From IMG/VR virus record IMGVR_UViG_3300016476_000987: DNA of 49,638 bases; one strand, 5' to 3'. Both the position numbers and the translations under genes were made by a program. Below the pieces are notes generated by a model that worked only from the letters and a program-made list of their open reading frames with translations, was not told where the DNA came from and did no database searches. The stretch comes from a virus (Duplodnaviria; Heunggongvirae; Uroviricota; Caudoviricetes). Within the stretch, counting starts at the first letter, position 1; each line of letters starts with the position of its first letter. Positions 1,475 to 26,963 of this stretch are shown here, in pieces.

Positions 1475-1726
1475 TTAATTTTTGAACTCTTCCCAAATTG
1501 TATCTTTTAAATTATCAAGAATTGCCTCTCCGATATCATCTGTGTTGATGCAATTAAGGATTTCAAGCTTCTTTTCAAATGTAATTTTTTCTTTGATTTG
1601 ATTGAGGAAATCATCTTCAAATTCATCAATAGCAATGTCTACATCTTTAACTGAAAGTATAAGATCTGTAATGAATCCTCTAGATTTTAATTCTTCTAAA
1701 AGATCTTTGTCGCTGTAATGTTTCAT
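1475..1726 (-). CDS. hypothetical protein
   Basis: ORF track; preceded by the repeated leader TTTCTTTACACTTAATAAAA. Confidence 0.75.
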   Translation of the reverse strand: MKHYSDKDLLEELKSRGFITDLILSVKDVDIAIDEFEDDFLNQIKEKITFEKKLEILNCINTDDIGEAILDNLKDTIWEEFKN

Positions 1727-1731
1727 ATTTG

Positions 1732-2258
1732 TTTTATTAAGTGTAAAGAAACCTAATTATACTGCCTGGGTAAATTTATTTCTGAATTTATTTTTGTACT
1801 CTGATCCTTCTTTGATGCTATCTAATTCAATTAATACGTCCATCACTGCCATCAATCCATTGAATTGGTCTTCCATGAGTTCTTGAGGAGTGTGTGAGTT
1901 ATAATAGAAGTAGTGTATTTTTGTTGCTCTTTCAAAAGCATACTCTACTTTAGCCATTTCTTCCCAAGAATACTCAGTTAATACTTCAAGATCTTTTTCA
2001 CAACTAGCGTTTCTTTTTATAATCTGTTCTCCGTCCGTTGGTGTATAAAAAATACTATTCCAGAAGCTATTATTAACCTCACAATTATATTCAGAGGTCA
2101 CTGATGTTCCCATTGCGTTTGCTACAATATTTCCTACAGCACATGCTTTACAAGTGCCTTTTGCAAGAGTGTCATTCATGAAGGCATTGTAAAGAGCATT
2201 GTACGCTTTTTCAAATCTCGGTGTCATAATTTATTTGTTTTTATTAAGTGTAAAGAAA
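1732..2258 (-). repeat. 20-nt direct repeat TTTCTTTACACTTAATAAAA (minus) at 1732-1751 and 2239-2258, upstream of two consecutive genes
   Basis: Identical 20-mers read directly in both intergenic spacers. Confidence 0.8.
1757..2227 (-). CDS. hypothetical phage protein (KGTCKACAVGN motif)
   Basis: ORF track, 156 aa, CxxC motif. Confidence 0.8.
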   Translation of the reverse strand: MTPRFEKAYNALYNAFMNDTLAKGTCKACAVGNIVANAMGTSVTSEYNCEVNNSFWNSIFYTPTDGEQIIKRNASCEKDLEVLTEYSWEEMAKVEYAFERATKIHYFYYNSHTPQELMEDQFNGLMAVMDVLIELDSIKEGSEYKNKFRNKFTQAV

Positions 2259-2260
2259 TA

Positions 2261-2530
2261 TTAACTCCACGTAAATTTTACTTCAACAGTATCTTTATCA
2301 TAATAGTCTACACAATATCTTGAAGGTGTAGAGCCATAATCAATAGCAACAAATATGTTTGTGGTGCTATCTAGAATGTCTCTCACATCTCTTTGTACCT
2401 CTCTGGGGAGATGAACATAGGCATAAGTTTTACCATCGGTTGCTTTCTTCTCACAAATTTCGATAACCCGTTTTACTTCTGCCTCAACCTTTTCTTTTCT
2501 CCTTTCTTCATTTGTTTTAATCGTAACCAT
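2261..2530 (-). CDS. hypothetical protein (start moved to MVTIK)
   Basis: ORF track 2261-2611; the downstream ATG at 2530 avoids overlap. Confidence 0.7.
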   Translation of the reverse strand: MVTIKTNEERRKEKVEAEVKRVIEICEKKATDGKTYAYVHLPREVQRDVRDILDSTTNIFVAIDYGSTPSRYCVDYYDKDTVEVKFTWS

Positions 2531-2543
2531 ATTATTTATTTTA

Positions 2544-2798
2544 TTATGTTGTAAAAAATAATTCACCTGGCTTCCATACTTTCTCAACTTGAATCTCTTC
2601 AATGGCTGCAATAGTTCCGTTCCTCAATCCATCGGAATAGAACTTTGCAAACACATCTGTTGAGTTGTCTAGTATTTCTAAGATATCCCTGTAATCCACA
2701 CGCTTGCATCCAATGATTGGAATATGAGTATATGCAAATTTTACTGAGGGATACTTGTCTCCAAGGATTTTCCGGTAGTGACCAGCAGGAGGTTTCAT
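2544..2798 (-). CDS. hypothetical protein (start at MKPPAG)
   Basis: ORF track; start chosen to avoid overlap with 2807-3148. Confidence 0.6.
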   Translation of the reverse strand: MKPPAGHYRKILGDKYPSVKFAYTHIPIIGCKRVDYRDILEILDNSTDVFAKFYSDGLRNGTIAAIEEIQVEKVWKPGELFFTT

Positions 2799-2806
2799 AT
2801 TTGATT

Positions 2807-3148
2807 TTATTTTTCTTCGCAAAAGCCAATGGTATATTCGGCACTACTTTCCGTGAATGTCATATTCATACCTTGTTCAATAGCAAGTTCCTCCGCTTCT
2901 TCAATACTTGTCGCCTTGACAATGATTGTGTGACTTGCATAAGATATGCGCTGAACATCTACAACGTATTCTTTGACTTCTTTTTCAATGTCCATCAAAT
3001 AAGCATCCGTTTCACATTCAGGACAACCCTTGAAATATTGGATATCGTGGCTGACATTGTTATCTGATAAATCAGTAAAAAGTTTCAAATCATTTTCATA
3101 CCCTTCCCATCCACAATTGTTGCAACGAACTTCATATTTTTCAATCAT
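2807..3148 (-). CDS. Zn-ribbon-containing hypothetical protein
   Basis: CNNC...CPEC motif pair. Confidence 0.75.
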   Translation of the reverse strand: MIEKYEVRCNNCGWEGYENDLKLFTDLSDNNVSHDIQYFKGCPECETDAYLMDIEKEVKEYVVDVQRISYASHTIIVKATSIEEAEELAIEQGMNMTFTESSAEYTIGFCEEK

Positions 3149-3159
3149 ATTATTTGATT

Positions 3160-3396
3160 TTAGTTTATGACATAATCAATGTTGTCAGCAATGATATCCC
3201 AATTCACACCATAGTTGGCATCAAAGGAGTTTTCAATACTTTCCACAACTTCATTAACTTGTTCATCAGTCAGGGTAATGTTAAATCGTTCAGCTGCTGT
3301 CACTACAACATCCTCTTTGTTCCACAATACTCTGATAAAACCTCTGTTACAAAGTTCTTGAATGAGTAGTTCGGTATCAATTTCTTTTAGGTTCAT
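3160..3396 (-). CDS. hypothetical protein (start MNLKEID)
   Basis: ORF track; leader AAAACAAACAGTT-ATG. Confidence 0.75.
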   Translation of the reverse strand: MNLKEIDTELLIQELCNRGFIRVLWNKEDVVVTAAERFNITLTDEQVNEVVESIENSFDANYGVNWDIIADNIDYVIN

Positions 3397-3447
3397 AACT
3401 GTTTGTTTTAAATTTTTGTAAAGTAAGTAGTCTACAATTTGTAAAAT

Positions 3448-3478
3448 AAAAAGGGGCTGATGTAGAAACACCGCCCCG
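3448..3478 (-). terminator. intrinsic terminator hairpin
   Basis: GGGGC-GG-TGT-TTCT-ACA-TC-AGCCCC followed by TTTTT on the minus strand. Confidence 0.7.
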
Positions 3479-3510
3479 ATTAAACCTAATCACTATGACA
3501 CAAAAGACCA

Positions 3511-3762
3511 TTAATCCCAGACCCTGGATACAGTCCTATCCATGGGATTGAATTCTACTTGATTATAAGACCGGTACTTACCGGCTTCAAATACCATACG
3601 ATCATGCTCATCATGAGTAAGCACTCCAAGACTTGCCAACATGAACGAGATACCCTGACTGTCCTCAGAATATGTAATATTAGACTTGGATGCAAGGATA
3701 TGCTTGTGGCCAATAACTTCTCCTTCTCCGAGGCAGATACTTTTTGCTTTCTTACTTTTCAT
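3511..3762 (-). CDS. small His-motif protein resembling the DUF6745 partner family (GEGExxGHxH...HxEH...G.Y...Q.E..P...RV.D)
   Basis: Motifs LGEGEVIGHKH, LTHDEH, AGKY, QVEFNP, RVWD; family recalled from memory. Confidence 0.7.
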   Translation of the reverse strand: MKSKKAKSICLGEGEVIGHKHILASKSNITYSEDSQGISFMLASLGVLTHDEHDRMVFEAGKYRSYNQVEFNPMDRTVSRVWD

Positions 3763-4860: not shown

Positions 4861-5622
4861 TTAGGTCTCTGAATACATCAACTCAAGATATTGATCTTTA
4901 GTTAAGTGATAAGGAGTCACAGTTTTCGAGGTGGGAGATTCTTTCGCTACAATAATATCTCCTTGCCGGTAGATACGCTCAGGATCTGATATGTCTATTC
5001 TAATAGTCCAGGCTATTGCCTGTATAGCATCCGGCTCTGCTTTTATAGAAGAGTTCCACACGGCTCTACTATCTAACAAAGTTGCATCATAAGGAACATA
5101 GATCCAATACTCTCTGTTAGTAGTGGTACACCAACATCTAACAGCCGTAATAATAGCATTCCTAGTTCTAGTAAACTGAGTTACAAAGTGATCAGCACTT
5201 CCAAATAATTTATCCGCAGGGATAGAATACAACTCATATACATCCTCAAACTCATATTCATACGGATCATTGTTCTCATCCCACCTACGTCTACTCTTTT
5301 TGATTATTTGCTTATCTAGAAGAGTAGGTTGTAGACTATTGAATAACTTTACTACCCCAATACAATCAAAGAATACTCTACGCAACTCTATATTATTTTG
5401 TTGCATAGCCTCCTGTACAGTAACCGGATCTATTGAATCCCAAACCTCTCGCATAAACTCAGCTAGCTCTGATAAAAAAGAGCTAGCTTTAATTACCTCT
5501 CTGTTGTAGTCTTCAAAGGTAGGATACTTAGTTTTCCATAACCTTGTGCATAGGTCGAATCCTTCCTGGATGCGGACTCCTGTTATAAAATAACTTGCTG
5601 TTCTAAAATCAAACTTACTCAT
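4861..5622 (-). CDS. DUF6745-like protein with a C-terminal RQGD motif
   Basis: NIELRRVFFDCIG, YELY, VRCWCTTTNREYWIYVP, AIQAIAWT resemble DUF6745 (N.E.RR...CPST.R.Y.L.VP...A..A.AWT); recalled, not searched. Confidence 0.65.
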   Translation of the reverse strand: MSKFDFRTASYFITGVRIQEGFDLCTRLWKTKYPTFEDYNREVIKASSFLSELAEFMREVWDSIDPVTVQEAMQQNNIELRRVFFDCIGVVKLFNSLQPTLLDKQIIKKSRRRWDENNDPYEYEFEDVYELYSIPADKLFGSADHFVTQFTRTRNAIITAVRCWCTTTNREYWIYVPYDATLLDSRAVWNSSIKAEPDAIQAIAWTIRIDISDPERIYRQGDIIVAKESPTSKTVTPYHLTKDQYLELMYSET

Positions 5623-5633
5623 TTTAGTAGGTA

Positions 5634-6317
5634 TTAATCTGTGAATGAAATGCTATACATATTTTCTTCTGACGTTTCACATGTGAATCCAATAGTATTT
5701 ATACGGTACTCCCTCACTCCTTTTTCTTCGTTTACCACAAACTCACTTCTCCTCACACTAGCTTCATCAAGTCTTTCTACAGTATAAAAATCCGGATACT
5801 TATCAGTAAGTTTTTCAATGACCTCTCTATATGTATCTTCAATTTTGGACTGTATCTCTTTTGCAGTATCATTCAATAAATCAAAAAGAAGAGGTCCGTT
5901 TGTAACTAAGAAGTTAATGCGTACATCTTCCAAATCTGCTTCTATATCCATAACATCAAAAGGAACTTCTAACGGGACTTCAATTATCAGAGCAGGGTAT
6001 TCCCCAGGATGTTCTGTTATGTCCTCAACTTTATAATCCGAATATGAATAGTCATCTTGTCCTTCAAAACACTTGGTCTCTCTGTTGTAAACAAGTTCTC
6101 CGTTCACGTTAAAATCTCCTGCAAAAGAACCATATCCAAGATGACCGGCCACTTTATTAACTATCTGTTTTTGTATATCAGTGTAGTTGTAGTAGTCTAC
6201 ATTTTCATCTCCAATATACAAATCAATACATCCTTCGTCATTTCCACCATTAAACTGTATCTTAATTGTTTTATCTTTAGATTGTTCATCTAGATAATTA
6301 AGCATCTCGTTGTTCAT
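5634..6317 (-). CDS. DUF6878-like N-terminal domain protein
   Basis: IQFNGGNDEGCID resembles the F.G.GDSG.I motif; sits next to a DUF6915-like gene. Confidence 0.5.
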   Translation of the reverse strand: MNNEMLNYLDEQSKDKTIKIQFNGGNDEGCIDLYIGDENVDYYNYTDIQKQIVNKVAGHLGYGSFAGDFNVNGELVYNRETKCFEGQDDYSYSDYKVEDITEHPGEYPALIIEVPLEVPFDVMDIEADLEDVRINFLVTNGPLLFDLLNDTAKEIQSKIEDTYREVIEKLTDKYPDFYTVERLDEASVRRSEFVVNEEKGVREYRINTIGFTCETSEENMYSISFTD

Positions 6318-6323
6318 TGTTTG

Positions 6324-6698
6324 TTATTTAGATTGTGCTTCAATAGTTTCTAATTCTCTTTTTACTTTTCTAGATTCGTCAGACTTCATCATCCATACTT
6401 GAGGTTGTAGATTCTGTAACCAATCTTCAACAGTAGGGACCTTACCGCAATCTTCATAGATATGATCGTAGGCAATCTGTCTTACCTCTACCATCTTACC
6501 TTCTGAGTTAGTCACATAATCTCCAAACACTTGCTCTGCCAGGAGCATTCCAAAGGAGTTATGAAGGATAGCTCTGTGTTTGAAGTTAGGCATGTGCCCC
6601 TTCGTCGAATCAAAAAATTTGTGAATATGAATGTAGTCATTGATAGATCCGCCATACTTTTTGACGGAAGACTTTGCATGAATCAGTGGACTTGCCAT
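6324..6698 (-). CDS. DUF6915-like protein (His-rich)
   Basis: PLIHAKSSVKKYGG..DY..IH.FFD.TK...HRAILHN.FG...E..FG...H..ED.G..PT..DW. Confidence 0.75.
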   Translation of the reverse strand: MASPLIHAKSSVKKYGGSINDYIHIHKFFDSTKGHMPNFKHRAILHNSFGMLLAEQVFGDYVTNSEGKMVEVRQIAYDHIYEDCGKVPTVEDWLQNLQPQVWMMKSDESRKVKRELETIEAQSK

Positions 6699-6703
6699 TT
6701 TTT

Positions 6704-6952
6704 TTATTTTAGTTTTTTAGGTCTGTTTTCTTTTACTTTATTATTCTTTGCTGCTTCTACTCCTTGATTGTACCAAAAGAAAGCGGCGTTGTGCATAACC
6801 TCTTTCTCATAGTTTAGTAGAGTTCCACGTAGGTCCTCATAGTAAACACTTTTTATTGATACCTTTACAAGATCTAATATTAGTTTTTGATCATCGGTCT
6901 CTGTTTTTATAGTACTAATCTTTTCTAATAGTGTAACTAATGGACTGCTCAT
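6704..6952 (-). CDS. hypothetical protein (start MSSPL)
   Basis: ORF track; start moved to avoid overlap. Confidence 0.65.
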   Translation of the reverse strand: MSSPLVTLLEKISTIKTETDDQKLILDLVKVSIKSVYYEDLRGTLLNYEKEVMHNAAFFWYNQGVEAAKNNKVKENRPKKLK

Positions 6953-6953
6953 T

Positions 6954-7160
6954 TTAATGGTTTGAGTATGAATGCCATAGTGCAACAGACGCTAGGATTA
7001 ATATCAAGTGACATATCATTATTATATACACAAGATTAAATCTAAGTTGCCGATTATCAAAGTTAGCATTGAAGGCCCAGTCTGTTGCTTCTTCGATAAA
7101 GAAGAAAAACAGTATAGGAATATACCAATACCATCTACTGTCTTTGATTGCTTGTTTCAT
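6954..7160 (-). CDS. small membrane protein (2 hydrophobic segments)
   Basis: WYWYIPILFFFF and LVYIIMICHLILILASVALW. Confidence 0.7.
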   Translation of the reverse strand: MKQAIKDSRWYWYIPILFFFFIEEATDWAFNANFDNRQLRFNLVYIIMICHLILILASVALWHSYSNH

Positions 7161-7699
7161 TGTTTAAGTTTTAATTTTCCATCAACAAATTTTACTTCCC
7201 ATTCTGTTTTGGGTTGAAGAGATTGAGAAAATTTATTTACACCATCTGTAACATCTCCTCTTCTTTCTGTGCCTTCCAAAAAACCCCATGTAAAAGCATC
7301 TAACAAATCCTCCCTTGTGTACTTCCGTTCCTTGTTGTCCTCAAGGGCTTGGTTGTAACCTCTAATGAAAGAACCATTGTGTTTCACTTTGGCTATACAG
7401 TCATTTGCCTTTTTCTCCACATCCACCACACCAAGGAGTTCTTTGACTTCTGATAAAGGAAGAAATTTTACATTACTCCAATCAGGTTTCAAATTAGCAG
7501 TAGTAAAACCATCTACATTCAAAAATCCCAAGGGTTGTGTTGAATGGGTGATTTTTTTTTCACCACCTGTCAAATCACCACCAAAATATTGTACAGGTAC
7601 GAATTTCTTTAGATTTGGGAAACCAATCCAATCACCTTCTTTAATTTCTGAATCATCACAAATAATGTAATGCTCCTCAGATAGTCTTTTCATTTTCAT
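7157..7699 (-). CDS. hypothetical protein, paralog of 14697-15143
   Basis: Shared LSE.HYI..DDS, GVVDVEKKA, GYN..LEDNKERKYTR, TEWEV..VDGKLKLK. Confidence 0.8.
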   Translation of the reverse strand: MKMKRLSEEHYIICDDSEIKEGDWIGFPNLKKFVPVQYFGGDLTGGEKKITHSTQPLGFLNVDGFTTANLKPDWSNVKFLPLSEVKELLGVVDVEKKANDCIAKVKHNGSFIRGYNQALEDNKERKYTREDLLDAFTWGFLEGTERRGDVTDGVNKFSQSLQPKTEWEVKFVDGKLKLKQ

Positions 7700-21958: not shown

Positions 21959-22048
21959 GATGAGAGGGTGTACCTGTATGGTACAATTCACTGGTCGCAG
22001 AGAGTGCAACCGGGATTTTTATCCCCTCTCTAAGGGGCAGGAGTCCTA

Positions 22049-22540
22049 TTACTTATAGTACTGGGGGAACTCCTTTGAAGGAGTCAGTTCTACGCTGGCT
22101 GGAACTTCGTTCCAGAACCAGAATTCTGATGACTGGTTCGGGTACTCCCACACGGAGTTGTACCCGATGTTGATGATGGAGTCGTAATAACGACCCCGGT
22201 TTTCATACAGCCTATGCCGTATGTTATAAAGATACCGGCGGCGCACCAGCCCCCACAATAATCCCCTCCTCTGCAAGGGAGTAAGTTTGGGGACTACATA
22301 ATCCAAAATCTCCTGTATCAACAGGATTTCCTTTCTCACTTCGGCATGTCTTTCTGCCTTTTCAGAAGGCAAATGGTTCCTTGACCACTCTCTGTAGTCC
22401 TCCACATACTTCTCGTATGCGAAGTCTACGATTTCCTCTACTGTCGGGATAGAAGCAGCGAATACATCGCTCTTCCTTCCTGTGAATTCAAAGTTTACCC
22501 AAGAAGGGATTACGCTGGTAGAGGCCATTACATTTTTCAT
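22049..22540 (-). CDS. hypothetical protein
   Basis: ORF track, 163 aa. Confidence 0.7.
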   Translation of the reverse strand: MKNVMASTSVIPSWVNFEFTGRKSDVFAASIPTVEEIVDFAYEKYVEDYREWSRNHLPSEKAERHAEVRKEILLIQEILDYVVPKLTPLQRRGLLWGLVRRRYLYNIRHRLYENRGRYYDSIINIGYNSVWEYPNQSSEFWFWNEVPASVELTPSKEFPQYYK

Positions 22541-22647
22541 AACAAGTGATTGATAGTTTTACGTCCGTGTGAGTTTAATAATTAGACAACTTCGAGGCAC
22601 ACAGACTTAACCTCGTAGTCATCCTGTTAATCCTTGTTATGGTGGAG

Positions 22648-22711
22648 TGATCATTGTAGGCATCGAACCTACCAAGAGAGATAAACTCCCTTGTTCCACA
22701 ATTAATGATCA
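22648..22711 (-). ncRNA. tRNA-like element (8-bp acceptor plus T-arm; reduced D and anticodon arms)
   Basis: TGATCATT/AATGATCA; GTAGG-TTCGATG-CCTAC; CAAGGGAG-TTTAT-CTCTCTTG hairpin. Confidence 0.6.
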
Positions 22712-22717
22712 TTATAG

Positions 22718-22756
22718 AAAAAAGCCCCCGAGATATTAATAATAATCCCAGGGGCT
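22718..22756 (-). terminator. intrinsic terminator
   Basis: AGCCCCTGGGAT...ATCTCGGGGGCT-TTTTT. Confidence 0.75.
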
Positions 22757-22765
22757 ATAGAGATA

Positions 22766-23185
22766 TTAAGGCCAGTAGGAGGTTACTTCCTTTTCAGGAA
22801 ACAAAGCCTGTAACTTTTGCTTCAGGCTCTCTACTGCTTCCGCTGCCCCATTAGGGTAACGGACGATCAGATTTATCTCCGAAGAGGTAAAGATTACATC
22901 CATTGAGGCAGGAAAACTATCCGTGAACACTACAATGTTGTAGCATTGTCCGCTCAGACGGCGGGTTACTATTTCCTGCGCAAACTCCTCTCTACAGAGT
23001 TCCTCCGCCTGAATAAGACGGGGATCTGCTTCTTTCATGGAGCGAATCGTTTTTACCATGGCTGAAAATGCTTCTGAAAAAGTTCTCATAACAAAAGGTT
23101 TTTGATGGTTTTTACCTGTGAAATAATTAGTTAAGACAACTCGGAGGCACACAGGCAATACCTCTTTGCTGCCATTAAGAAACAA
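22766..23185 (-). CDS. hypothetical protein (start uncertain, possibly MRTFSEA)
   Basis: ORF track; the N-terminal part overlaps the repeated leader block. Confidence 0.6.
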   Translation of the reverse strand: MFLNGSKEVLPVCLRVVLTNYFTGKNHQKPFVMRTFSEAFSAMVKTIRSMKEADPRLIQAEELCREEFAQEIVTRRLSGQCYNIVVFTDSFPASMDVIFTSSEINLIVRYPNGAAEAVESLKQKLQALFPEKEVTSYWP

Positions 23186-23250
23186 ATATCCTTAATCCTT
23201 GTTATGGTGGAGAAAATACTGACTAACGTGCTACCCATTATAGATAGCAT

Positions 23251-23280
23251 AAAAAACCCCCACTGTATAGACAATGAGGG
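23251..23280 (-). terminator. intrinsic terminator
   Basis: CCCTCAT-TGT-CTAT-ACA-GTGGGGG-TTTTT. Confidence 0.75.
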
Positions 23281-23293
23281 AAGAAGATATAAA

Positions 23294-23309
23294 TGTTCCA
23301 CGTGAAACA
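23294..23309. promoter_or_regulatory. parS: parS centromere-like site 1 (TGTTCCACGTGAAACA)
   Basis: Exact match to the chromosomal parS consensus TGTTNCACGTGAAACA. Confidence 0.85.
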
Positions 23310-23451
23310 TATAACGTGTGGAAGTATTATTGCAAGGTGAGTCATTAGAGGTAGGGAGGTACCTGCTAAAAACCACCATACAACATTATTTTCACGACAC
23401 AAAACTTATTTTTTCACACCCAATCGCTTGAATGTGAATAAGTTATGCGAA

Positions 23452-23467
23452 CGTTCCACGTGGAACA
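23452..23467. promoter_or_regulatory. parS: parS site 2 (CGTTCCACGTGGAACA)
   Basis: 16-bp parS palindrome variant. Confidence 0.8.
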
Positions 23468-23477
23468 TTTTATCAAG

Positions 23478-23541
23478 GAGACGCTCCCGGAATCGAACCG
23501 GGACGGATTTTACTCCGTGGGAGACCCGCTCCCAACGCCTC
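23478..23541 (-). ncRNA. tRNA-like perfect four-helix junction
   Basis: GAGGCGTT/AGCGTCTC; GGGAG-CGGGT-CTCCC; ACGGA-GTAAAA-TCCGT; CCCGG-TTCGATT-CCGGG, with no linker nucleotides. Confidence 0.65.
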
Positions 23542-23559
23542 TTAGTCGTATAGAGATTT

Positions 23560-24295
23560 TCTTTTTTTCCCATATGCGAAGGCACTACGACATACCTAAC
23601 GCATTGCGTCTATTACTTGCCCAAGGACAGCGGACGCTACGCACCATAGAGATGGCACTAATAGAGTGTCAATTCACTCGGACCCGCTTCTCGGTAATTT
23701 TAAGGTAAACCTTCAACTCCCAAATTACCAAACACGTGAAGGGAGTTTTGTACTTGCCACAGAACATACAAGACCCAGTACTCCGAAGAGACAGATCAAG
23801 CAGACAGCCTGTGGGTACACAGGTGGGCTTCCGATGCTTTGAAGACACTACTTACCTATTTGCACTTTTCTGTTTATTAAGCCTATGCCATCACGCACTA
23901 GCGTTTACGCAGTACTCATGCAGACAGATAGAGTTTTACGTTCTCTGACCCACGGGGCTCATCACAAGCCTTTGTACCCGAGTGTGGATAGTGGGCGGAG
24001 TGCTTCGACTCTTCTACGCATCTGATATGTCAGCCTTATATTTTATACCTCATACGTGCCTCCCTTTCGGTCGTTGCTCTACGGGCATCGCAGGGTTACA
24101 GATGAACGCATTCGCATCTGTTATCCGTCATTGACGGTTACAGTCCCAAGGCTTACAAGGGGACTGCCGACTTGATACACACATCACATGTGTACGCTAT
24201 CGGATTAATAAGTAGGCAGGTGCATTACTCATGGGGGGTATGAATGTTCCACGTGGAACACTCAGGGACTAAGCCTTGCTAGTGTCTGCCTAAAA
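23560..24295 (-). ncRNA. candidate large structured ncRNA (~700 nt), boundaries approximate
   Basis: No credible CDS; visibly GC-richer; many hairpins with cUUCGg and GAAA loops on the minus strand; long-range complementary blocks. Confidence 0.45.
24245..24260. promoter_or_regulatory. parS: parS site 3 (TGTTCCACGTGGAACA, perfect palindrome)
   Basis: Read directly. Confidence 0.85.
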
Positions 24296-24359
24296 AGATC
24301 TGTTAGTGTCCTCCCTTGCCATCGAAGGTACCGGCCATCACACCGGAGGGAGGGAAGGA

Positions 24360-24560
24360 TCACTTCCCGAAAAAGTCTTTGTGCTCCTCGAAAAAGTCTT
24401 TGTTCGCTTCCCGAAATCTTTTGATACCCTCTTGGAGTTTTACCTCCTCCTCCTCCATCATTTCCTTATCCCTCTCCCACACCCCCGTGGCTTTAGGGTA
24501 AAAAGCGAGGAGTAGTCCGATTTCTAATAACCATTCGTGCTCCTTTTTCAGATCCTTCAT
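24360..24560 (-). CDS. hypothetical charged protein
   Basis: ORF track; leader AAAACAAAGGTT-ATG. Confidence 0.7.
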   Translation of the reverse strand: MKDLKKEHEWLLEIGLLLAFYPKATGVWERDKEMMEEEEVKLQEGIKRFREANKDFFEEHKDFFGK

Positions 24561-24659
24561 AACCTTTGTTTTATTTGATGAGTCCCCACATCGGCATCGA
24601 AGCCCACGACTATTTCATCGTGTGGGGGGATATATTGGTTGGCGTTCATGTCAGGTTGG

Positions 24660-25229
24660 TTACGCTTTCAGGGCTTTCTTAGCCTTGTTCTCCAACTTGC
24701 GGATTTCCTTATAGGACTCCATCAGTTGGAGTTCCTTATCAGACCATACCCGCTGAACGGAGTCACGCTTCCGGAGATTAGTCAAGAACGTGGCTTTCTT
24801 TATCATCTCAATGGACAGGGCAGAAATATCTGCGTCGTCCAATTTGGTAGTCTTGTCGCCGTACAGGTTACATTCTTTACCCCACTGCTGAGTGAGGGAA
24901 GAATCCATGGCAGACAGGGTAGCACAAATCACGGTTGCTTCTTTCGGGAAAAAACTATCCCACTCCCACGGTTTACACTTCAGCATCTTTTCAGACACTT
25001 TGAAGCCGTTGATACGGAAGGCAATCTTACCCTTAAACTGAGACAAGTCAACCGAGCGAAGGTAGGACAGAAGAAAGTTGACTGCCTGTCCGAGGCTTTT
25101 AGGCTCGACCATAACAGGATTTCCTTCCTTGTCAATTTTTACGCCATGCGTCAATTCACCTTCGATGGCGGACACTTTCACACTTGCATCAGTGCACTCG
25201 ATACGATACTTAAGGACGATCTTTGTCAT
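24660..25229 (-). CDS. hypothetical Lys-rich protein (start MTKIVLK); first gene of the leftward array
   Basis: ORF track 24660-25331; ATG at 25229 has an A-rich leader and leaves parS site 4 upstream. Confidence 0.7.
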   Translation of the reverse strand: MTKIVLKYRIECTDASVKVSAIEGELTHGVKIDKEGNPVMVEPKSLGQAVNFLLSYLRSVDLSQFKGKIAFRINGFKVSEKMLKCKPWEWDSFFPKEATVICATLSAMDSSLTQQWGKECNLYGDKTTKLDDADISALSIEMIKKATFLTNLRKRDSVQRVWSDKELQLMESYKEIRKLENKAKKALKA

Positions 25230-25259
25230 GTTATTAGGTTTTTTACTTTTGCCCGCATA

Positions 25260-25275
25260 CGTTCCACGTGGAACA
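25260..25275. promoter_or_regulatory. parS: parS site 4 (CGTTCCACGTGGAACA), followed by a degenerate copy at 25276-25291
   Basis: Read directly. Confidence 0.8.
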
Positions 25276-25404
25276 TTTTTAACGTGAAACGGAAACGGGC
25301 GGATGAAAAAATGCCCAAACATGAACGCCATACCAATATATCAAAGACCCTTGGTAGGGATACCTGCCCGCGTCACCGGCTGATATTCATTCCCTCCAAC
25401 ACTA

Positions 25405-25412
25405 CAAAGGTA
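25405..25412 (-). promoter_or_regulatory. Bacteroidota-type -7 element TACCTTTG
   Basis: TAnnTTTG match upstream of the leftward array; no clear -33 TTTG. Confidence 0.4.
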
Positions 25413-25763
25413 CGCTTTCAACCTGTTAAAAATACCACCTTATTTTGGCTAACACGTTTTAGCAAAATGGCAGGACTAGCAGGTAGCCTTTCATATACGC
25501 CCCAATTTTGGAAAAACTTTAATATATACATATATACGGTATCGTTCCTTTTCATTGGCAAGGTATGGAAATAAAAATCCCCTCTTCGGTGATATTGAAG
25601 AAGGGATCCGTGGCGCATTCCCAGGCTGTTCTAGGCGTTGTTTTGTACTCGGTAAGGTATTCGTATTACCAGGCCCCTCCGGGGGCTAAAATCGGCTGTT
25701 TTAGGTGTGTAGCTTTTTGCATATTTATATGTGCTATCCCCAATTAAAAATTTTAGAAAAATC

Positions 25764-26963
25764 TTAATAATAAGGAGCTAGTACCTCAATTCCGTTGATC
25801 TCTATGAAAGCAGTATCCGGGTTTACTTCGTAGGTGTCTTTGTCCATGTCAAAAGACATTTTTAGATCCTTCTTATGCTTAGCGTTTATCCGGATAACAT
25901 CAGAATCCTTATCAGGCTTTTGTATGTCTATCTCTATGCTACTCCTGTCTATGTCCTCTATTACCTCATTATCGTAGGCAACTCCCAGGATATCTACCAT
26001 TAGCCCTTTAGCTCTTTCTTTGATGATGTTCTCTCCTCTCGGTGCTCTTGGATTTAGCGGTTTGGAGTATTGGCTGCTTGCTATCTCATCATCCCAGAAA
26101 ACCTCCAGGTTTTGTATTTTACTTCTCAAGTCTTGTTTGACTTGTGGTTTTTGTTTTCTAAAAGACTTAACGGTCATTCCTTTTCTTAAAGAAGGACTTA
26201 CCTCTTTTTCTACCCATTTTCTAGGAGATCCTGATATTCCTCCTCTAGGCAGCGTTTCTTTTTCTTTTCCGTCTTCTTCGGAATCTCTTTTGTTTCTACG
26301 CACAATGTCTTTTGCAGTGCTTCTTGCAGCTGTTAGGTCGTTAAGAGAGCCTAATGTTTTATCTTTTTCAACAGTCCTAACGCCTCTCGTATACATACTA
26401 GGAGAGTAGTTGGCTCCCTCTTTAGGAGTCCACAGAATATATTTTGTGTCCTTATCTGGACTATACTGAAGATAGGTCTCGCTGCTGATTACCTGGATTG
26501 TGGATTTTCTTAAAAATCTAGTCTGTAGACAGATATACCCTCCAACAGCATCGTCTTTGCTTTTGACAAATACATAATCAGTTATGGATATTATTCTCGG
26601 TTTACTTCTTTCTTCGTCCCCTCCTTTTTCAACTTTGGGTTTGGTAGCCGAAACAGTCGGATTGTAATAGTACTCTACGTCTCTAGGAATCGGTAATCCT
26701 AATAGCACAAATACTTTTTCTACAAATTCAGTAGCGACTTTTATTTGTAGATCTTTTATATCTTTTGGCAGCTCCCCTCTAAGCAAAGCGCTATCATTTC
26801 CAGAGGCTTCTTTTTCTCTAATATCTTTTTTAATAGAAGCCAGGTCGCTAATAACAAATTGATCTGAGTTGGTTATTTTATTAATCTCAGAAAAAAAGGT
26901 ATCTGATACAGCTTTAACTCTGGCCTCTAACAGAGAGCTTAAAAATATTCTGCCTAGTTTCAT
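25764..26963 (-). CDS. hypothetical protein, 399 aa (possibly virion-associated)
   Basis: ORF track; TATTTATA just upstream, as for some structural genes. Confidence 0.75.
   Translation of the reverse strand: MKLGRIFLSSLLEARVKAVSDTFFSEINKITNSDQFVISDLASIKKDIREKEASGNDSALLRGELPKDIKDLQIKVATEFVEKVFVLLGLPIPRDVEYYYNPTVSATKPKVEKGGDEERSKPRIISITDYVFVKSKDDAVGGYICLQTRFLRKSTIQVISSETYLQYSPDKDTKYILWTPKEGANYSPSMYTRGVRTVEKDKTLGSLNDLTAARSTAKDIVRRNKRDSEEDGKEKETLPRGGISGSPRKWVEKEVSPSLRKGMTVKSFRKQKPQVKQDLRSKIQNLEVFWDDEIASSQYSKPLNPRAPRGENIIKERAKGLMVDILGVAYDNEVIEDIDRSSIEIDIQKPDKDSDVIRINAKHKKDLKMSFDMDKDTYEVNPDTAFIEINGIEVLAPYY

Follow-up and report, generated by a model that had tools for sequence, protein, structure and literature searches.

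Apparent host-type parS sites cluster at cassette junctions around a conserved non-coding element in a large T4-like phage

Spreading as CTP clamps and recruitment of SMC are established properties of ParB, and ParB-CTP clamps slide off free DNA ends (PMC7333895). Among phages, the closest described case is Bacillus phage phi29, which, according to the summary in PMC2731898, has five parS sites that are used via host Spo0J (Meijer et al. 2005). It provides the only experimental showing of a phage borrowing host ParB, and as a published precedent it lowers the novelty of the locus that we describe here. Plasmid and phage par systems usually place parS beside parAB, with a site sequence of their own and no cross-talk with the host; P1- and N15-type cassettes, for example, encode their own ParA and ParB beside a private site sequence. 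KorB of plasmid RK2 is likewise a ParB-family CTP clamp encoded by the plasmid, and its OB sequence differs from parS. The PeSL cassettes of T4-type phages consist of a promoter plus a stem-loop, without mimicry of a host protein's binding site. To our knowledge, phi29 does not encode a ParB.

The locus lies in IMG/VR record IMGVR_UViG_3300016476_000987, within a stretch of 49,638 nucleotides that was analysed in full and that we call the window. By its sequence, the phage looks like a large, lytic, T4-like freshwater myovirus, represented by a 184-kb contig (ena:ERZ27292626:k141_330835, 183,965 bp), in which the window occupies positions 105,479-155,116 in reverse orientation. Its structural genes include T4-type ones (gp25, baseplate wedge, Portal_T4 and terminase), and there is no integrase domain among the Pfam hits of the window. 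The need for partition in a lytic T4-type myovirus is not obvious, which is a point against such a role.

Four 16-mers in the window resemble the 16-bp palindromic parS consensus TGTTNCACGTGAAACA, with 0, 1, 2 and 2 mismatches. Site 1 (TGTTCCACGTGAAACA, 23294..23309), the last in gene orientation, has no mismatch and is separated by a 142-bp spacer (23310..23451) from site 2 (CGTTCCACGTGGAACA, 23452..23467). Site 3 (24245..24260) is the perfect palindrome TGTTCCACGTGGAACA, and site 4 (25260..25275) is again CGTTCCACGTGGAACA. An extra half-site, CGTGAAAC (25283..25290), sits 7 bp off site 4 within a degenerate copy at 25276-25291. Neither the sites nor the spacer are assigned a strand (.). The first-pass annotation had reported four sites and a degenerate copy at 25276, all lying outside coding sequences, and no full site elsewhere in the window. 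The positions proved exact. A relaxed scan likewise found no further site in the window, nor in ~16 kb of the same phage flanking the window on either side (L145, L146); in all, the scans covered about 65 kb of the phage's DNA, with none outside the cluster. None of the four sites lies in coding sequence. Site 4 had been a doubtful case, as it falls inside an open reading frame called at 24660-25331; in an alignment, the homologues of that frame begin at ATG 25229, which places site 4 upstream of the true start and outside the gene. Nor are the sites randomly distributed. The window holds 10 strand-matches where 1.25 are expected, a count reached in 0/100 dinucleotide shuffles, and 11 GTTYCACG half-sites where 1.7 are expected, 9 of the 11 inside the cluster.

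The sites are the junctions of exchangeable cassettes, and they bracket every cassette as well as a non-coding element; neither of these features, nor the phi29 precedent, had been noted in the first-pass annotation. Between sites 4 and 3 lies a gene for a 189-aa protein (24660..25229, - strand), whose start codon is 30 nt downstream of site 4, followed by a variable 66-aa ORF (24360..24560, - strand) that is gone from related contigs L001 and L003 and replaced by a 59-aa ORF in L005. Sites 3 and 2 adjoin the 5' and 3' ends, respectively, of a conserved 777-nt non-coding element (23468..24244, - strand), a candidate large RNA that ends in a tRNA-like four-way junction (~23478-23541), the 3' junction being seen in the predicted fold. 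Mean column identity of the element is 92% over relatives in which identity of the neighbouring protein ranges over 54-89%. Rfam (at gathering thresholds and also at E<=1) and ARAGORN gave no match at the sites or the element in 22.9-25.8 kb, and exact words of the element are absent from the viral, genome and metagenome collections. An nhmmer profile of the element detected no homology in relative G074, where Rfam offered nothing credible. The 189-aa and 399-aa proteins have no relatives in viral contigs, and a family alignment found none in metagenome contigs; GenBank phages matched neither 22-27 kb (blastn) nor the 189-aa protein (tblastn). We also considered an oriC mimic, with DnaA boxes beside parS. 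We counted 8 copies of the motif TTWTNCACA where 7.2 are expected, without clustering, and this candidate was rejected.

Absence of the sites from close relatives would have spoken against their importance; instead, each of six related contigs, obtained from other samples, retains parS sites, and site 3 is found in 6/6. The site 1 variant occupies an equal relative position in L003, L006 and L304, and the same three contigs retain the 158-bp spacing from site 2 to site 1. Among the matches listed, contigs from other samples differ at 23282-23291 and beyond 23357, with no difference within site 1. The intergenic block of site 4 is 92-99% conserved and the gene behind it 75-81%. The half-site at 25283-25290 is retained in L001-L005, where the sole change is a T/C that the parS consensus permits. 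In L304, the half-site adjoining site 4 is missing, and an unrelated 194-aa gene takes the place of the 189-aa gene between sites 4 and 3. All five 16-mers of L304 are nonetheless intact though their flanks cannot be aligned. Differences among copies occur only at positions 1/16 and 5/12, matching the pattern of host sites. Judged by these alignments, the sites are maintained as sites regardless of neighbouring sequence. Further afield, Immutovirus, Mel-JY01 and LR756508 have no site, and neither do distant genomes of 209 kb (100% complete), 159 kb (100%) and 156 kb (96%). The number of sites is four here, five in L304 and one in the closer relative G074. With distant relatives lacking sites and one closer relative holding only one, the cluster is accessory.

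The letters of the sites point to a host group. The exact 16-mer is in use across many phyla, Bacteroidota included, and we infer from sequence that Bacteroidota is the probable host group; the comparison rests on family-level genomes, 61 in all, from the family of Flavobacterium soli (Flavobacteriaceae). At no more than one mismatch, parS occurs in 54/61 of these genomes, with exactly two sites in 38 and at least four in one only; in 60 of the 61 the number falls below that of the phage. The three phage variants are precisely those that the hosts use (TGTTCCACGTGGAACA, ..GAAACA and CGTTCC..). In six inspected site pairs, each from a different host genome, the pair brackets one gene of 622-623 aa, 1.9-2.0 kb long, which in the one example scanned is mnmG/gidA (Pfam GIDA, 3e-163). 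Flavobacteriaceae hosts also carry a ParB gene. At the level of sequence, the earlier suggestion that the phage bears a host-type centromere is supported, also by the comparison with the predicted host's variants that it called for: all three variants are identical to those of Flavobacteriaceae, and the sites are conserved apart from their flanks. On this evidence, the four 16-mers are probably true copies of the host group's chromosomal parS, kept by selection.

It is also rather likely, in our judgement, that host ParB loads onto the phage DNA at these sites. No ParB was found in the parts of the phage that were read, which makes host ParB the likeliest user. In the mechanism that we propose, host ParB dimers would nucleate on the phage sites and then shut as CTP clamps, and these clamps would spread across the adjacent early-gene and non-coding region to give a partition complex on phage DNA. 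The host chromosome would offer about two sites and each phage genome four or five; with more sites per genome, replicating phage DNA could become the cell's chief ParB-loading substrate. The phage DNA would then be coupled to host ParA and SMC, and ParB would meanwhile be stripped from the host origin. The first-pass annotation had raised similar roles as possibilities: hijack of host ParB/SMC, segregation in a carrier state and titration of ParB. The repeated sites probably also serve as short homologies for cassette exchange among related phages. Because clamps run off at free ends, it is uncertain whether ParB would build up on linear phage DNA.

What the phage would gain is a weaker part of this proposal. 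We rank first the positioning and inheritance of unintegrated genomes through host division in a delayed or carrier-state infection, which would resemble phi29, where genome positioning serves spores. Takeover of the host through diversion of ParB and SMC may come second, and a local effect on the non-coding island, insulating or regulating it, third.

Alternatively, the protein that binds the sites may come from the phage itself, as a ParB-like clamp or another palindrome-binding regulator that belongs to the phage's own partition or KorB-like system. Site 4, 30 nt before a gene start, has an operator-like position, and ParB-fold proteins are frequent in phages and plasmids (PMC12704722). No ParB_N, ParA, CbiA or related family occurs in the 60 ORFs of the window, ~25 kb either side of the sites, and a profile of 31 chromosomal ParBs had no match in the window or in contig stretches L145, L146, L300 and L305, whose Pfam labels include no ParB or ParA either. 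On the 184-kb contig this search spans ~85 kb (positions ~76.7-161.8 kb), a reach that leaves this alternative some support. ParB and ParA were likewise not found on the 90-kb contig from a relative whose portal is 84% identical, and no ParB turned up in relatives further removed, three of them represented by complete or near-complete genomes. The first-pass annotation's remark that no parA or parB is visible therefore stands for the window and ~85 kb of the contig; with neither gene beside the sites, the locus does not qualify as a plasmid or phage-plasmid parABS cassette. The adjacent 189-aa protein has no Pfam or PHROG match, and its AlphaFold model (pLDDT 73) found nothing in the PDB with Foldseek at E<=0.001, so nothing singles it out as the site-binding protein. 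The site letters are those of the host family exactly, unlike the private sites of par systems. We therefore regard a phage-encoded binder as unlikely, though it is the strongest of the alternatives to loading of host ParB.

A second alternative is that the palindromes act at the level of RNA or recombination, as processing or closing stems, terminators or cassette joints, and that the match to parS is incidental. The copies bracketing the 777-nt element could pair within one transcript, like the flanks of rRNA precursors. Bracketing of every cassette and of the element also suits a role as joints, as does the doubling of site 2 around an additional 116-aa gene cassette in L001 and L304, which brings exactly one additional site copy. 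A stem or joint need not match a host centromere, however, and by a hand calculation the chance of such a match for a palindrome with 8 free positions is ~1.5e-5. There is no compensatory drift among the copies; variation is limited to the positions at which parS is degenerate. As intrinsic terminators the sites do poorly: the only scores, weak ones, fall on the + strand at sites 2 and 4, whereas the genes run on the - strand, and the palindrome stem has 3 GC pairs. On the gene strand, a T-rich stretch follows the palindrome hairpin at site 1 only, which makes the sites poor intrinsic terminators there. Just past site 1 in gene orientation, at 23257..23280 (- strand), a GC-rich hairpin precedes a T-run in the manner of a terminator. 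A role as cassette joints is equally compatible with sites selected for ParB, as a by-product. We consider an incidental match to parS improbable, and more so than binding by a phage protein.

That the segment is misassembled host chromosomal DNA, or a recent functionless capture, is extremely hard to credit: the GC content of 44% at 22-26 kb against ~34% elsewhere, and short metagenome contigs, foreign to the surrounding phage, that share the 16-mer and match at the sites alone, would suit it, but the same arrangement recurs among phage genes in independent assemblies (Logan, ENA, IMG/VR), words of the stretch occur in sequencing runs from 12 studies (with no RNA runs among the listed runs that contain them), neither mnmG nor another host gene lies between the phage sites, none of 185,579 species genomes contains a 41-mer taken from the element, and the sites persist in L304 despite diverged flanks.

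Loading of host ParB, our preferred reading, may extend beyond this phage. At least 120 contigs in IMG/VR contain the exact site, whereas a control palindrome of matched composition occurs in 3, and this at least 40-fold excess in viral contigs suggests that the phenomenon is general. We raise, as a tentative idea that may well prove wrong, that orphan host-type parS is a widespread, largely unpublished phage strategy, of which this locus would be an extreme form: a modular, multi-site 'centromere island' that loads host ParB and, via it, SMC and ParA, is physically coupled to a large structured RNA locus and doubles as a scaffold for recombination of early-gene cassettes. If host ParB does load here, the locus would be a natural system in which a virus competes for ParB-CTP clamps, ParA and SMC. 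It would shed light on the persistence of large 'lytic' aquatic phages in slow-growing hosts, through a carrier state or pseudolysogeny, and on the draining of ParB as a possible tactic of host takeover. Chromosome segregation in the host phylum appears little studied, and our literature search found no study of Flavobacterium ParB or parS. Deleting the sites would leave every gene intact, so this cluster of four to five sites is a handy test case.

Each of the known systems shares a part of this arrangement. The PeSL cassettes of T4-type phages likewise have short shared junction sequences in a plastic early region in which small cassettes are swapped. The OB sites of RK2 are ParB-type palindromes near promoters and gene starts, from which a spreading clamp can regulate transcription, but a KorB-type protein was not found here. 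Plasmid-prophages (P1 parABS, N15 sopABC and other phage-plasmids) have centromere-like repeats that serve the inheritance of an unintegrated genome; here, in contrast, par genes were not found and the site is the chromosomal one of the host. The chromosomal parS/ParB(Spo0J)-CTP system of Bacteroidota has the same 16-bp variants, which lie between genes on either side of a ~2-kb unit. Over its 2-5 Mb, the host chromosome has about two sites, and it carries a parB gene, whereas the phage has four and no parB was found, and the phage DNA between the sites has no homology to host DNA. The virulent Bacillus phages phi29 and Nf are alike in that parS of the host chromosome is present in several copies on the genome of a virulent-type phage; in their case, the host's ParB homologue is used to move the phage genome. 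The payoff given for phi29 in the summary is spore entrapment, together with Spo0A boxes. Phi29 is a podovirus with a genome of 19 kb and a spore-forming host, and the phage here is a 184-kb T4-like myovirus. We know of no endospores in Bacteroidota, the probable host group, and in a host without spores phi29's explanation would be inapplicable. The sites of phi29 are mapped as separate points along the genome (PMC2731898), whereas here four to five putative ParB-loading sites fall within 2 kb, where cassettes meet on either side of a non-coding element.

The search with TGTTNCACGTGAAACA, allowing up to three mismatches, identified five places in the window, all within 23294-25291. Four are full parS sites, at 23294 (site 1, TGTTCCACGTGAAACA), 23452 (site 2, CGTTCCACGTGGAACA), 24245 (site 3, TGTTCCACGTGGAACA) and 25260 (site 4, CGTTCCACGTGGAACA); the fifth, at 25276, is a half-site. 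The 10 strand-matches compare with 1.25 expected, and none of 100 dinucleotide-preserving shuffles contained as many. A relaxed scan detected no further sites in the rest of the window or in ~16 kb of the same phage past both window ends. Genes around the cluster are all on the minus strand. Because homologues of ORF 24660-25331 start at the ATG at 25229, site 4 is positioned 30 nt upstream of this 189-aa gene and not inside it. The first-pass annotation had described four full sites and a degenerate copy at 25276, all within 2 kb, with no full site elsewhere in the window, and had placed them outside coding sequences with some doubt about site 4. We confirm all details of this account of the cluster.

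The window lies within a 183,965-bp contig. T4-type structural genes are present (gp25, baseplate wedge, Portal_T4 and terminase), and the nearest cultured phage is Flavobacterium phage Immutovirus, with 48% amino-acid identity in the baseplate wedge. Words from the 2-kb stretch were found in runs of 12 studies, most runs having under half of the words; nearly all of these runs are labeled as freshwater, riverine, estuary, lagoon or aquaculture metagenomes. In gene orientation, site 4 is followed by the 189-aa gene, a variable 66-aa ORF, site 3, a 777-nt non-coding element (23468-24244, minus strand), site 2, a 142-bp spacer, site 1 and a terminator-like hairpin. The non-coding element terminates in a tRNA-like four-way junction; neither Rfam nor ARAGORN gave a match for it. 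It is 92% identical among relatives, while the neighbouring protein is only 54-89% identical. Upstream of site 4 is a 530-bp ORF-poor stretch (25230-25763), possibly another non-coding or regulatory element; conservation among relatives is 92-99% over at least the first 190 bp of this stretch, above that of adjacent coding DNA. GC content is 44% at 22-26 kb versus 34-35% overall, and this GC-rich island (22000-26000, 44% vs 34%) contains the parS cluster. At 28.9-29.2 kb, ~3-4 kb beyond the island, the cumulative GC skew reaches a turning point and gene directions diverge. The window has no cluster of DnaA boxes. A 145-aa phage protein with Bac_DnaA_C, the DnaA DNA-binding domain, is encoded ~0.6-1.0 kb before the window start (10763-11200 of L146, a stretch of the same phage).

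The exact palindrome occurs in many phyla, including Bacteroidales, Chitinophagaceae, Flavobacteriales and Flavobacterium soli. In the F. soli family, 54 of 61 genomes have parS (at most one mismatch); exactly two sites are present in 38 of these 54, and four or more in just one. The phage genome, with 4-5 sites, therefore exceeds 60 of the 61 host-family genomes in centromere copies. The host pair, separated by 1.9-2.0 kb, encloses a single 622-623-aa gene in the six different genomes inspected (e.g. 2032 and 3934 in L139, and 2052 and 3964 in L141, both Flavobacteriaceae loci); this gene is mnmG/gidA in the one scanned (Pfam GIDA, 3e-163). Host variants comprise TGTTCCACGTGGAACA, a form ending in GAAACA, and forms in which the first T is C, A or G. 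All three phage variants are among them, which bears out the earlier description of a host-type centromere. ParB is encoded elsewhere in these host-family genomes, on another contig in the three checked.

The phage itself had shown no visible parA or parB gene at first pass, and we detected no ParB_N, ParA or related families among the 60 window ORFs. A full-genome search for ParB had been suggested; neither ParB nor ParA was found within contig positions ~76.7-161.8 kb, covered by the window together with four additional stretches read through their Pfam labels. A profile from 31 chromosomal ParBs had no match in any examined locus of the phage or its relatives, and ParB_N had none in the IMG/VR relative G064, the 90-kb contig G074 or more distant genomes. 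A phage protein encoded outside the scanned stretches could bind the sites instead, though we regard this as unlikely. The best-supported prediction is that host ParB would nucleate on the phage sites and then spread as a CTP clamp; CTP-clamp spreading and SMC recruitment are established ParB behaviours (PMC7333895).

Relatives had been proposed as a check on the cluster. The sites are kept at the same places in five small contigs from other samples, collected via proteins with 54-89% identity to the product of the 189-aa gene, and in a sixth, 37.6-kb contig from another data set; conservation is 92-100% in the intergenic blocks and the non-coding element versus 75-81% in the 189-aa gene. A sharper test is G064 (locus L304; 94% baseplate identity), which retains five sites with all 16-mers intact. 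There, the gene between the first two sites is unrelated to that of the window, the flanks of those sites are unalignable, and homology to the 777-nt element is limited to its 3' half (alignment columns 442-831), the 5' half having been replaced. Changes among all phage copies are confined to positions 1/16 and 5/12, which are also the variable ones in host sites, and an extra 116-aa gene in L304 and one related contig (L001) is accompanied by exactly one extra site copy. Intact 16-mers despite replaced flanks, restricted variation and joint gene and site insertion argue that the sites are selected as such; they lie where exchangeable cassettes meet. The palindromes could conceivably act at the RNA level or purely in recombination, but this is improbable because only protein recognition accounts for a letter-for-letter match to the host centromere without compensatory drift. 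That the cluster is misassembled or contaminating host DNA can be dismissed with near certainty: independent assemblies carry the same arrangement, and the element is missing from all 185,579 species genomes searched.

The site cluster is limited to a close clade. G074 (84% portal identity) has one site, at 6080 within a GC-rich, ORF-free 1.8-kb stretch (5429-7241 of locus L389; 43% GC) that shares no homology with the window's element and gave no credible hit in Rfam; thus, the association of parS with a GC-rich non-coding island recurs with different sequence. Sites are absent from Immutovirus, Mel-JY01, LR756508, and genomes of 209 kb (rated 100% complete), 159 kb (100%) and 156 kb (96%). 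In L303, a related contig, Thy1 (ThyX) and HNH_3 endonuclease genes (1526-3521) are just upstream of a 175-aa early-gene homologue, an arrangement unlike that of the window's phage.

The earlier interpretation stands in part, as to a host-type centromere sequence; for the benefit to the phage, we infer three options. Each phage genome offers 4-5 sites and a host chromosome two, so phage DNA would, as it replicates, capture most ParB loading. Unintegrated genomes might be inherited or positioned in dividing cells during delayed infection, ParB/SMC might be diverted as part of host takeover, or the non-coding island might be locally regulated or insulated. We rank inheritance or positioning first because it is the sole option with an experimentally supported precedent, phage phi29.

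Published work on phi29 describes five parS sites and the use of host Spo0J for spore entrapment (PMC2731898, PMC9437464), and the principle of phage-borne host parS is therefore not new. The exact site TGTTCCACGTGGAACA is found in at least 120 IMG/VR contigs (L147-L266), versus 3 (L306-L308) for the reversed control palindrome ACAAGGTGCACCTTGT. Among the 120 matches listed, 115 have a single site in the stretch examined per contig and no contig exceeds two; a ParB-like ORF is nearby in only 4. A single site is also present in each of five large contigs, two of which are complete genomes. Particular to this phage are the dense cluster of 4-5 sites, its location where cassettes join around a large non-coding element, and its presence in a T4-like Bacteroidota lineage, whose host group does not form spores.
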